A program made the position numbers and the translations under genes. 64,000 bases of DNA from assembly GCF_013122565.1 (NCBI RefSeq), contig NZ_CP053258.1; one strand, given 5' to 3'. Below are positions 57,270-62,220 of this stretch, one piece after another. A model generated the notes under the pieces. It saw only the letters and a list, made by a program, of their open reading frames with translations, was not told the DNA's origin and made no database searches. Every line of letters begins with the position of its first letter. Position 1 is the stretch's first letter. This DNA comes from Escherichia coli (lineage in GTDB: Bacteria > Pseudomonadota > Gammaproteobacteria > Enterobacterales > Enterobacteriaceae).

Positions 57270-57749
57270 ATGTCTCAAACAGAAATTATTCTTCCTTCAG
57301 GAAGAGAACTTACTCCAGGTGAATATGGTTATGCCAATCTGGAACCTGGCGATCACTACCAGACTCCCGGTCTTAACGTAACAGAGTCACAGATTGTTGC
57401 TTTTGCGGGGATAAGCGGTGATTTTTTCGATGTTCATATGGATGATGAATTTGCAAGGGAAAAAGGATTTCCAGGACGCATTGCCCACGGTCTGTTAGGT
57501 TTAGCATTGACGGACGGCCTGAAGAATCGTTCTATTGTACGTTTACGTGCAGTTGCTACATTAAACTGGAACTGGTCATTCTGTGCACCATTATTGCCTG
57601 GAGATCATATTCACGCCGTTATTACTGTTGTTAAAAAACGCCCCACCAAACGTGAAGACCGAGGCATTGTGACTTTTGCTTTACAATTGTTTAATCAACA
57701 TGGAAAGATAATACAGCGAGGCGAAACTCTGCTGATGATGATGCAATAA
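57270..57749 (+). CDS. MaoC-like (R)-specific enoyl-CoA hydratase/dehydratase
   Basis: 159 aa hot-dog-fold-type sequence; GGAAAG RBS. Confidence 0.7.
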   Translation: MSQTEIILPSGRELTPGEYGYANLEPGDHYQTPGLNVTESQIVAFAGISGDFFDVHMDDEFAREKGFPGRIAHGLLGLALTDGLKNRSIVRLRAVATLNWNWSFCAPLLPGDHIHAVITVVKKRPTKREDRGIVTFALQLFNQHGKIIQRGETLLMMMQ

Positions 57750-57868
57750 TCTGAGTTTGAAATACGTACCAACGAGTATGCTGGTACGTATTTCTTCGCA
57801 AACGCACTGTTTATGCTCTCTCCCTCATAATGACTGTTTCATCTAACTAATATTTCTAAATAACTGTC

Positions 57869-59137
57869 CTAAATTGACGACCTGAATGCCTCTGCCATTA
57901 ACTCTTGCTCACGATCAGGTAATCTAAGACGCTCGGCAATAGTTTGCCACTGACTGACAATCCCTCTAAAATTAGCAATAATGTCATCAGCTTCCGTCAA
58001 ACTAAGTCGAAAATACTCTGCAACTTCTCTAGCTAATTCCAAATCAAGTGCATTATCATTTTCCGTAATATTAAGCTTTAAACCGTCAGATCTGGAAACA
58101 GGATTCAAATCATATGCTTCAGAAAGCCGCCAACCTTTTCCCGGTATCAAGATATATCCATGATTACGTAAATGATCATCGGTATTAGAAACAAGAATAT
58201 TAAAAACAATTCTGGACCAGAGTTCTTTAAGGTCAGTATTGGTCTGCGCTCCGTGCCTGATAAGAACATCTGCTAATTCCAGATAACTTACACCTGTAGA
58301 GGCATCTTCACCATCCTGATGTCTGGTTAGTGTCATAGCCGAAGCAAAATGCAGACGCCTTCCCGCATTAGTGCGGTCAAAACGACGAACCATAAAACAA
58401 TGGTAATTGCTGGCAAATTTATGCGCCTGAGCAGGTGCAACATTCAGTCCACAGCCAACAGCAAGCGCATTAACGACCATTTCCCATCCACCAACATCAT
58501 ACTCATCTTTTGCACTGGGAAATTTAGCGATGTAAAGATGTCCGGCTTCATCAACCACACTGGCTTTTGGACGTGCACCCCCTAATGATCCCCCCGGAGC
58601 GATTAGCATTCTTAACCATTTTTGCCCCATGAGTTCTTTATTATCAGGATCTTCTTCAATTGCCCGGCTAGCCCTTTCCAGACTCGCTATTTCGGTAAAT
58701 GGTGGGGCTGCAACATTAATGCGGTTATCAAGAAACTCTCCAGCGTCTTCACGTTTGTATCGAAGAGCCCCAACCCGATAAAGATCATGAACACCTAATA
58801 GATAGTCAGACTCATAAAGGTGGGAGTCTTTATCAAATAACCCATCTCGAATATCCCTCTCAAAACGACGCTTCATTAGCATACGCCCCCAACGATCCGG
58901 GCAGGAATCACTAAACGCACCAAATTTATCCTTTGGAGGAATTGGGTACTGTGCTCCCTCATACAACATTATTTCAGGATCTAACTGAATGAAATTAAGT
59001 GCACGATCTGCAAGCGCCTTTTTATCGTACTCAAACTCAAATATCTCACGCGCCCGAGTGCGACGACTGTGTAAATAACCAATACGCGCAGGACCATCCA
59101 GGCCTTCCCAATCCGCATACACTCCGATTAATGCCAT
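57869..59137 (-). CDS. HipA-family serine/threonine kinase (type II toxin-like)
   Basis: 422 aa; HipA-like motifs GGSLGGARPKASV (P-loop-like) and DDHLRNHG (catalytic); AAGGAAAT RBS; 13 nt after HTH gene stop. Confidence 0.8.
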   Translation of the reverse strand: MALIGVYADWEGLDGPARIGYLHSRRTRAREIFEFEYDKKALADRALNFIQLDPEIMLYEGAQYPIPPKDKFGAFSDSCPDRWGRMLMKRRFERDIRDGLFDKDSHLYESDYLLGVHDLYRVGALRYKREDAGEFLDNRINVAAPPFTEIASLERASRAIEEDPDNKELMGQKWLRMLIAPGGSLGGARPKASVVDEAGHLYIAKFPSAKDEYDVGGWEMVVNALAVGCGLNVAPAQAHKFASNYHCFMVRRFDRTNAGRRLHFASAMTLTRHQDGEDASTGVSYLELADVLIRHGAQTNTDLKELWSRIVFNILVSNTDDHLRNHGYILIPGKGWRLSEAYDLNPVSRSDGLKLNITENDNALDLELAREVAEYFRLSLTEADDIIANFRGIVSQWQTIAERLRLPDREQELMAEAFRSSI

Positions 59138-59150
59138 AATTAATTTCCTT

Positions 59151-59642
59151 TTATCGGTTTTTTATCGGTTTTTTTATCGGTTGTAATAGTGCAGCAAGAG
59201 AGGTTGACGTTTCCCCTGGAATAGTTGGCGTTGAGTCTTTTGCCAGTGCTGTTAAATCCGTGGTGAGATGACCTTCTTTCTCGCGTTTCGTCTGAAATGA
59301 GGCTGTCTGAATCCCTTCTTCATTCTTAACTGATGAACGAGAAAGCCCTCTTTTTTTAATCAAACGGGAATCCTGGAGCTGATGCCCTAAGGCGTCTTCA
59401 GCTGCAAGCTTATTTAAATCCGTTTCCAGGCCCAAAACCTGCATCACAGACAAATATGCCCCTATCGTGACCCCTGCACTTCCTGCCTCCAGAGAACGCA
59501 ATGTGATTGGCGACATCCCTGCACGCTCAGCAACTTGCTTTGCGGTTAGCTTACGTCGTAAACGAGCAAGTTTCAGACGCTCACCAAATTCACTAAGCAT
59601 CTGATTCGTATAAGGGAGTAACGGTGCTGTTTTTTTACCCAT
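59151..59642 (-). CDS. XRE-family HTH protein with long low-complexity C-terminal tail (HipB-like antitoxin candidate)
   Basis: 163 aa; HTH in [39 protein letters not shown]; about 80-aa S/T/K-rich tail ending [10 protein letters not shown]; start may instead be the internal ATG at 59600. Confidence 0.7.
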
Positions 59643-59664
59643 AGTGATAATATTTTATCTTTTT

Positions 59665-59681
59665 ATGGCTATGATAGCCAT
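59665..59681. promoter_or_regulatory. 17-bp perfect palindrome ATGGCTATgATAGCCAT upstream of the HTH gene; candidate operator
   Basis: Read directly; flanked by ATAATATT direct repeats; 25-40 bp upstream of the ATG at 59642. Confidence 0.45.
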
Positions 59682-60003
59682 AATATTAGCATTTATTAGA
59701 TTGAACGCACCTGCAAAGCGTTCAGAATTATGGAAGAGATAATATCTTATCTTTTTATATATAAAAACAATAAAATAACAGCACATTAATATATAACTTA
59801 TTGTTTTTATTATCTTACAAGGGAGACACTCGCTGTATTGATGCTTTTGTCGTGTTTTATGTGTAAAAAACATGACACGAACTACCAGCGGCGAGACTGG
59901 GGGCTGGGGGCCTGGTATGGGTACTGCGAACTTTTTATAAAAGGAATAGCAAGAGATTTATGGAGGGAACGTCTATTTCTGCGGTTTTTATCACTTAAAA
60001 GCA

Positions 60004-60030
60004 AAACGCCGACCAATGGTCGGCGTTTTT
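60004..60030 (-). terminator. rplI operon terminator (bidirectional-looking hairpin)
   Basis: AAAACGCCGACC-AAT-GGTCGGCGTTTTT with T/A runs on both sides, just downstream of rplI stop. Confidence 0.7.
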
Positions 60031-60050
60031 ACGTCTCGTTGAATAACGAA

Positions 60051-60512
<462 letters not shown>

Positions 60513-60541
60513 TCAAAGTCGTATTAATGGACCGTGACCGA

Positions 60542-61088
<547 letters not shown>

Positions 61089-61094
61089 CAGAAA

Positions 61095-61508
<414 letters not shown>

Positions 61509-61816
61509 TTATTCAGCCTCCTGTCTGGGTCAGCCGAATCCCGGGGAGGCAAGGAACGTGTTAAAGGTCGGCTGAAAAATGACGCGTTATAGTACTGACA
61601 TACCCCGCTAAACTCAAGGGCAGAGCCGAAATAAATCTCCCCTTTCGCAAATAACCTCTAAACCGCTGATTTGGAGTTCATCACACTTCATCATGGTGTT
61701 TTTTCGAACAACTGCATCAGAAATGGTCACCATCAACTTCTTTATCATTGATTAAAATTAAATCAGAAGATCATCACAGAGGAGAGCACACAAAGTCAGC
61801 CGTCGAGGAGGTATCT

Positions 61817-62092
61817 ATGTTCAGTCGAGTTTTAGCCCTTCTGGCTGTGCTTTTGCTAAGTGCAAATACATGGGCAGCCATTGAAATTAATAACCACCAG
61901 GCTAGAAATATGGACGATGTGCAAAGCTTAGGCGTGATTTATATCAATCATAATTTCGCCACTGAAAGTGAAGCACGTCAGGCATTAAATGAAGAAACAG
62001 ATGCGCAGGGCGCAACGTACTACCACGTAATTCTGATGCGGGAACCGGGGAGTAACGGCAATATGCACGCCAGCGCGGATATTTATCGCTAG
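61817..62092 (+). CDS. yjfY: Small periplasmic DUF1471 protein YjfY
   Basis: 91 aa from ATG at 61817 with signal peptide MFSRVLALLAVLLLSANTWA. Confidence 0.8.
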   Translation: MFSRVLALLAVLLLSANTWAAIEINNHQARNMDDVQSLGVIYINHNFATESEARQALNEETDAQGATYYHVILMREPGSNGNMHASADIYR

Positions 62093-62220
62093 CACCAGGT
62101 ATAACCAACGAAACATTGCCATAGTTTGCTTTGCCCCCTTCGCAGGGGGCTTTTTTTGAAAAACGGCTGCGGAATTAGACCAGTTATCTCCCGAGGAAGG
62201 AAATTTCCGCAGCGCGTGTT

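Follow-up and report, generated by a model that had tools for sequence, protein, structure and literature searches.

This analysis concerns a pair of genes, coding for a HipA-family serine/threonine kinase and a helix-turn-helix (HTH) protein of the Xre type, in a 64,000-nucleotide stretch of Escherichia coli DNA from contig NZ_CP053258.1 (the window). Both genes are on the minus strand. Reading of the open reading frames (ORFs) in the window places the kinase, of 422 residues, at 57869-59137, and the HTH protein, of 163 residues, directly upstream of it at 59151-59642. Between the stop codon of the HTH gene (59151-59153) and the start codon of the kinase gene (59135-59137) there is a gap of 13 nucleotides. 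ORF reading, Pfam, sequence alignment and AlphaFold2 (AF2) modelling indicate that the kinase gene, the presumed toxin, codes for an N-terminal subdomain followed by a HipA_C core. The HTH gene is described here as HipB-like, presumed to be both antitoxin and autorepressor, on the evidence of its ORF, its match to Pfam HTH_31 and its match to PDB entry 9U9G, discussed below.

The accessory region that holds the pair begins just downstream of the rplI intrinsic terminator, which a terminator scan puts at 60003-60029 on the minus strand. Similarity to cassette-free E. coli genomes ends at about 59997, directly after this terminator. A preliminary description of the window, made from the letters alone, had located a 163-residue HTH gene 13 nucleotides ahead of a 422-residue kinase gene, immediately past the rplI terminator, and had held that the K-12 map has nothing comparable at this position. 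The re-read ORFs, the gap and the terminator all agree with that account, and in K-12 the same position holds yjfZ/ytfA, the cassette being absent.

Pfam HipA_C matches residues 184-397 of the kinase (E 1.4e-46), and the HipA N-terminal family, Couple_hipA, matches weakly (E 0.44). The preliminary description had quoted two HipA-like kinase motifs, and both are found: GGSLGGARPKASV occupies residues 182-194, and DDHLRNHG residues 320-327. A proper alignment with K-12 HipA and HipH finds identical counterparts for all six of the HipA residues compared: S150 aligns with S184 of the window kinase, K181 with K205, D309 with D320, H311 with H322, N314 with N325 and D332 with D343. The catalytic residues are therefore in place, together with a serine (S184) at the HipA autophosphorylation position, and all six are invariant in the alignment of the kinase clade.

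Profile searches, which had been proposed as a means of placing the kinase among the HipA subfamilies, return HipA_C and, as the sole NCBIfam match, HipH (NF007297) at 44.3 bits against a cut-off of 401, so that the kinase is not HipH. Identity to K-12 HipA and to HipH is about 23% in each case, and the HTH partner scores 18.4 bits against the NCBIfam HipB model (NF007271), for which the cut-off is 79. The supposition that the pair is distinct from the K-12 hipBA and yjjJ/hipH loci was thus correct. For the kinase, the best PADLOC match (E 0.0049, 14 bits) is not meaningful, and no specific match came from PHROGs.

The nearest solved relatives of the kinase by sequence are HipT kinases, at an E-value of about 4e-8. 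In Foldseek, the AF2 model aligns with full-length HipA from K-12 and Shewanella (3dnv, 3tpt, 4pu5) over 454-478 columns, with template modelling (TM) scores of 0.63-0.71 overall and of 0.67-0.71 for the K-12 structures, but with HipT over 257 columns only. About 180 residues precede the Gly-rich loop. Given that the alignment with HipA is full-length and that with HipT is shorter, the kinase has the whole of the HipA architecture, its N-terminal subdomain included. Identity and profile scores put it in a separate deep clade of HipA-type kinases, clearly outside clades I, III and X of the Hip Tree (PMC8262856).

The clade is a large one, with at least 586 loci in species-representative genomes and more than 8,000 protein clusters. 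Identity to the window kinase is 72-82% in Enterobacterales, Pseudomonas, Burkholderia, Stenotrophomonas and Alcaligenes, and 51-55% in Bacteroidota, Myxococcota, Ignavibacteria and others. We fetched 80 related loci, one per sampled species. In 79 of these, drawn from several phyla, the gene immediately ahead of the kinase gene, in the same orientation, codes for an HTH protein of the same family as the window partner; the spacing runs from -4 to +38 nucleotides, an overlap of 4 nucleotides being frequent. The remaining locus is truncated at its end. The antitoxin-then-toxin order of hipBA, which had been read from the window, is therefore a feature of the sampled species in general.

The surroundings of the pair are much less constant. 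Flanking genes differ in every genus examined, and other toxin-antitoxin (TA), restriction or mobile genes are often close by. The neighbours are metabolic genes in E. coli, Yersinia and Pluralibacter, and SymE, HNH/Mrr, AbiEii, ParE, integrase and integrative and conjugative element (ICE) genes in Enterobacter, Salmonella and P. aeruginosa. Copies of the cassette are also found on plasmids. On this comparison of gene neighbourhoods, the pair behaves like a mobile two-gene addiction or defence module. Within E. coli, the cassette is at the same site in 1,040 of 5,426 complete genomes (about 19%), and in RefSeq the kinase carries the name "type II toxin-antitoxin system HipA family toxin", its neighbour being annotated as an HTH protein. 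The E. coli copies in complete genomes are at most 94.8% identical to the cassette and spacer of the window (57869-59997), whereas the adjacent rplI-yjfY flank (60051-62100) is 99.6% identical. From these values the window cassette is a divergent allele, which probably arose via recombination or separate acquisition.

The HTH partner falls into five parts in the alignment of its homologues: a conserved N-terminal segment, the HTH domain, a conserved helix (LGRQLQD) reaching to about residue 93, a variable stretch of about 50 residues and a C-terminal motif. The HTH domain occupies residues 18-75 (codons at 59418-59591, minus strand) and is of the Xre type, matching Pfam HTH_31 (9.6e-11) and also HTH_3; no other domain in the protein was matched. 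AF2 models it as helices, with a block-mean predicted local distance difference test (pLDDT) of about 70-90. The tail, residues 94-163 (codons at 59154-59363, minus strand), is variable among homologues and, from its pLDDT, is predicted to be disordered except for about the last 17 residues. The stretch of about 50 residues within it varies freely among homologues in both sequence and length. The composition of the tail is 13% K, 13% T, 10% S and 11% L, so that its earlier description as rich in S, T and K holds, but its length is about 70 residues and not the 80 or so then given.

The C-terminal motif, at residues 143-159 (codons at 59166-59216, minus strand), emerges from the homologue alignment and from AF2, and is the predicted kinase contact peptide. 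It reads x-T-[ST]-x-x-L-A-x-L-L-K-P followed by basic residues (TSxxLAxLLKP), and T145, L149, L152, L153 and P155 are invariant or almost so among homologues. The partners in the 80 loci are of two sizes. There are 36 long partners (149-230 residues, all proteobacterial or similar) and 44 short ones (97-138 residues, median 106), the latter ending just past the conserved helix. The motif is present in 29 of the 36 long partners and in none of the 44 short ones. The preliminary description had called the partner unusually long. This is true in comparison to K-12 HipB (163 versus 88 residues), from which it is also set apart by a conserved segment at the N-terminus, an additional helix, the disordered tail and its own C-terminal motif, but it is not true within the clade, where 149-230 residues is the rule for the proteobacterial members. 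As far as the sampled sequences indicate, the long tail is regularly found in the proteobacterial branch and is thus nothing special to this locus, while the family as a whole can do without it.

A structure has been deposited for a member of the same partner family, namely HipB from Pseudomonas fluorescens 2P24 (PDB 9U9G, released 2026-04-01), which matches the window partner over residues 1-98 (E 1.9e-29). The two are 62-63% identical in the ordered domain, and the structure differs from the AF2 model by a root-mean-square deviation of 1.3-2.0 Å. The Pseudomonas protein is also long (153 residues), only 77-85 of its residues are ordered, most of the tail not being among them, and it carries the depositors' name "antitoxin HipB". 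The entry contains the HTH protein alone, without kinase or DNA, and the tail differs from that of the window partner outside the terminal motif. No paper on 9U9G, on the P. fluorescens 2P24 HipBA system or on the E. coli locus was found in the literature searched.

AF2 was used to predict how the partner and kinase might fit together. The partner, a 40-residue linker and the kinase were modelled as a single chain from 32 paired sequences, giving a mean pLDDT of 76 and a predicted TM score of 0.71. The control was a model of the partner alone, built from its own, different alignment. The greater part of the tail has low confidence in both models, with pLDDT below 50 for residues 94-141 in the fusion and for residues 98-146 in the partner alone. 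At the C-terminal end, residues 141-150 have a pLDDT of 84 when fused versus 47 alone, and residues 151-160 have 73 versus 51. Residues 144-145 form a beta-bridge in the fused model, and residues 146-150 form a short helix. The HTH domain gains no confidence by fusion: blocks 81-100 fall from 75/56 alone to 55/44 fused. The pLDDT shift is most simply read as a prediction that the C-terminal motif docks on the kinase.

The region ahead of the HTH gene contains a set of operator-like boxes. The preliminary description had pointed to a 17-bp perfect palindrome, ATGGCTAT-N-ATAGCCAT, at 59665-59681, just where an autoregulatory operator would be expected. It is present, and is found once in the window, where 0.26 chance matches to the pattern would be expected with up to three mismatches. 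The repeat search shows that its perfect arms are in fact 10 nucleotides long, TTATGGCTAT C ATAGCCATAA at 59663-59683, and that it forms the core of a 51-bp imperfect dyad (59648-59698). The outer arms of this dyad are formed by two further boxes. The proximal box, O1, GATAAAATATTATCACT at 59643-59659 on the minus strand, was found by comparison across loci; it has an internal dyad, GATAA-N4-TTATC, and ends at the base before the HTH start codon. The distal box, O2, AATGCTAATATTATGGC at 59677-59693 on the minus strand, is inverted with respect to O1, and the repeat search supports it with an inverted pair and with the 25-nucleotide arms of the dyad. A third box, O3, at 59735-59758 on the minus strand, is a 24-nucleotide direct copy (92% identical) of O1 and its flank, 92 nucleotides further upstream.

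Comparison between loci shows which of these elements are conserved. O1 is identical in Serratia, and equivalent boxes touch the start codon across phyla. The O2 core GCTAATATT is kept in loci from Enterobacterales, Pseudomonas, Burkholderia and Achromobacter, and both it and AATATTA(G/T)C cores recur in Serratia, Pseudomonas, Burkholderia and Achromobacter. Direct box copies far upstream are also found in two Pseudomonas loci (L044 and L058). When the upstream DNA of all loci is lined up, one box ends 0-8 nucleotides before the start codon, and a related inverted box lies 24-40 bp from it, centre to centre. A repeat of the box is significant against shuffled sequences at p ≤ 0.05 in 48 of 80 loci, compared to about 4 expected by chance, and at p ≤ 0.01 in 30; inverted pairs account for 41 of the 48. 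A second E. coli locus (L001) has the palindrome unchanged, whereas Serratia (L007) lacks its right arm. The expectation of an operator here was thus right as to position but not as to the element conserved, which from the cross-locus comparison is the pair of flanking inverted boxes; the palindrome is a lineage-specific elaboration, in Escherichia, of a conserved operator-like region. Operators of the K-12 HipB type, TATCC-N8-GGATA, have no match in 59643-59997. In Bacteroidota loci, a TAnnTTTG element is found between the two boxes.

There is no Shine-Dalgarno sequence ahead of the HTH gene in the window, and in most loci, across phyla, an operator box directly precedes the HTH start codon without one. 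The window has a -10-like element, AATATT/TATTAT, 5-12 nucleotides before the HTH start codon. A leaderless transcript is therefore possible, and the operon mRNA may, on this sequence arrangement, be leaderless or nearly so.

Comparison with characterized systems puts the pair closest to HipBA. In the definition of Gerdes et al. 2021, the HipBA family has subdomain 1 within the kinase polypeptide, unlike HipT, HipG, HipI, HipJ and HipM (PMC8262856). The window locus has conserved kinase residues, an N-terminal subdomain in the kinase and an Xre-HTH gene immediately upstream. It resembles K-12 HipBA in its HTH-then-kinase order, its two-part HipA fold, its catalytic residues and S150-equivalent serine, its Xre-HTH partner and the presence of several dyads (operators in K-12, operator-like boxes here) in the promoter region. 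It differs in the low identity of its kinase to K-12 HipA, with profile similarity confined to core residues 219-394, in lacking the K-12-type operators, and in its chromosomal site. The HipBST systems of E. coli O127 and Legionella have the closest solved kinase core by sequence and also have the Xre-HTH gene first, but they consist of three genes, with the N-subdomain split off as the HipS antitoxin, whereas here there are two genes and the N-subdomain is within the kinase. HipH/YjjJ of E. coli K-12 gives the best, though weak, NCBIfam match, but is monocistronic, with the HTH fused to the N-terminus of the kinase (PMC8262856), whereas here the HTH protein has a gene of its own.

We consider it likely, and hold this with good confidence, that the locus is a self-contained type II TA cassette of the HipBA kind. 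HipA-type kinases are classic persistence toxins. The HTH protein, probably as a dimer, would bind O1, O2, O3 and, in Escherichia, the central palindrome, and by covering the promoter up to the start codon would repress the operon. It would also keep the kinase inactive. In the proteobacterial members, part of this hold would be due to the TSxxLAxLLKP peptide, docked on the kinase by way of a disordered tether of about 50 residues, and the disordered tail would in addition make the antitoxin easily degraded. Freed by loss of the antitoxin, the kinase would arrest growth by phosphorylating an essential protein; later, autophosphorylation at S184 would switch the kinase off. The natural trigger may be stress, loss of a plasmid or island, or phage infection. 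The precedents of HipA with GltX and HipT with TrpS would make the target an aminoacyl-tRNA synthetase or some other factor in translation. We know of targets only for the K-12-like clade, HipT and HipH.

A more specific version of this mechanism is put forward only tentatively. The antitoxin of the proteobacterial branch might control its kinase via the tethered TSxxLAxLLKP peptide, possibly as a pseudosubstrate through the near-invariant Thr145, unlike K-12 HipB, in which control is by the folded HTH domain; and a leaderless or near-leaderless operon mRNA might start from a promoter inside the operator that abuts the start codon. If true, the tethered peptide and the leaderless mRNA would each be a variation in mechanism without a described counterpart in any HipBA system.

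A number of observations count against assignment as a HipBA cassette, or against parts of the mechanism. The literature searched contained no experiment on the kinase of any clade member, so that toxicity, neutralization and target are all argued by analogy. No sigma-70 consensus promoter passed the scan upstream of the HTH gene, and within the window alone O1 and O2 match at 11 of 14 positions, with p of about 0.07. The AF2 support for docking is indirect, coming from a linker fusion with 32 paired sequences and a control on a different alignment. Since tailless partners are found in Bacteroidota and other phyla, the tail is not a universal neutralizing element. Finally, the conservation of the kinase between classes is well above what is usual for TA toxins, and could indicate a housekeeping-like regulatory role.

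This last point leads to the idea of a non-toxic signalling kinase with its own repressor, the two forming a conserved pair with a regulatory role and the phosphorylated target being dispensable. The kinase is indeed unusually conserved, both across gamma- and beta-proteobacteria and, at more than 50%, across phyla, and the HipA homologue HipH/YjjJ is reported to have many substrates with only mild effects (PMC9948734). Patchy distribution, plasmid copies and varying neighbours are, however, typical of addiction modules and not of core regulators, and a cassette found in only 19% of complete E. coli genomes does not fit such a role well; we think it very improbable. Alternatively, the HTH protein could be a transcriptional regulator only, like HipB in HipBST, while the N-terminal subdomain of the kinase, together with autophosphorylation, would control it in cis. 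The nearest solved relatives by sequence are after all HipT kinases, whose HipB is not an antitoxin (PMC8262856), and the lack of any gain in AF2 confidence for the HTH domain on fusion is in keeping with this. Against it, there is no third gene, the kinase has its own N-subdomain and aligns full-length with HipA, the C-terminal motif of the partner gains AF2 confidence only with the kinase present, the depositors of 9U9G name the homologue an antitoxin, and the two genes are strictly adjacent and often overlap by 4 nucleotides. This explanation is in our opinion unlikely.

The same parts could also function as an anti-phage abortive-infection module, in which phage infection, for instance through a phage protein or host shut-off, removes the unstable HTH protein and the kinase then aborts the infection. 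This overlaps with the HipBA assignment, and we regard it as conceivable though not probable. The cassette occupies variable slots beside SymE, HNH/Mrr, AbiEii, ParE and integrase/ICE genes in Enterobacter, Salmonella and P. aeruginosa, another HipA-family kinase pair, HipAD (DefensePredictor DS-6), has been validated as phage defence in E. coli strains (PMC13092281), and activation by phage has been proposed for other Hip families by Gerdes et al. (PMC8262856). The PADLOC match to the kinase is not meaningful, however, the neighbours in E. coli, Yersinia and Pluralibacter are ordinary metabolic genes, and the HipAD partner is unrelated to the HTH partner here. Identity of the window pair with HipAD itself was ruled out, given that the HipAD partner carries DUF3037/DUF1829 (PMC13092281) and the partner here only HTH_31/HTH_3.

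The locus is therefore an annotated HipBA-type cassette from a large and conserved clade; its framework is familiar, and no new kind of system is suggested. The details that may be new are the tethered C-terminal peptide, the operator-like box abutting the start codon and the degree of kinase conservation. Identification of the target and trigger for this kinase would fill a real gap, given that the clade is very large and is conserved beyond what is usual for a toxin, and the tail peptide provides a simple handle on how the kinase is restrained.

TrpS was considered separately as a target with a linked resistant copy, since in Enterobacter (L087-L090, 3265-4269) the cassette directly follows a second gene for tryptophanyl-tRNA synthetase, trpS2, which scores above the TIGR00233 cut-off. 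This link was rejected. No trpS2 is found within 6 kb in 80 other loci or in the window, and the gene is a resident one, which adjoins tnaAB in Klebsiella; in E. hormaechei the trpS2-symE slot holds other cargo. As trpS2 is elsewhere unlinked and is resident, its adjacency in Enterobacter is coincidental. In translation, the KMSKS serine of trpS2, which was considered as the resistant copy, is intact.

The junction between the two genes has a feature peculiar to the window. The HTH gene ends in three tandem CCGATAAAA(A) units (59151-59180, minus strand), and when it is aligned with the copies in E. coli (L001), Enterobacter (L087) and Serratia (L007), one 11-nucleotide unit proves to be extra. 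This tandem duplication moves the stop codon and frameshifts the last two codons (GN to NR). The gap of 13 nucleotides to the kinase start codon is found in the window only, and results from this displacement of the HTH stop codon; in the other E. coli, Enterobacter and Serratia copies there are 2 nucleotides or an overlap. The wider gap may weaken translational coupling. A Shine-Dalgarno-like AAGGAA, read from the sequence, is present 7 nucleotides before the kinase start codon (59145-59150, minus strand).

The AT-rich spacer of about 350 bp between the rplI terminator and the operator region has several more inverted repeats, including a perfect 13-nucleotide pair 24 nucleotides apart (59761-59773 and 59798-59810). 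It also contains a 72-codon ORF (59655-59873), which is probably spurious. Rfam gave only sub-threshold matches, at 59975-60084, to AgrB (32 bits versus 40) and to the rnk leader (26 versus 55); both overlap the rplI terminator hairpin and most likely represent chance stem-loop similarity.

On the other side of the cassette, 75 nucleotides past the kinase stop codon, an inverted repeat at 57759-57794 forms a perfect 13-bp hairpin with a 10-nucleotide loop (RNA fold z-score -5.5). It is situated between the kinase gene and a convergent MaoC-like gene, and may serve both as a terminator, though it has no clear T-run. The MaoC-like gene (57270-57749) codes for a 159-residue protein resembling (R)-specific enoyl-CoA hydratase, of the hotdog fold, and lies between a major facilitator superfamily (MFS) transporter gene and the kinase gene. 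It is outside the matched region of the 15 best-matching E. coli genomes, in which similarity starts at about 57849. In the E. coli ST80 locus (L001), the MFS gene ends about 140 nucleotides from the kinase gene.

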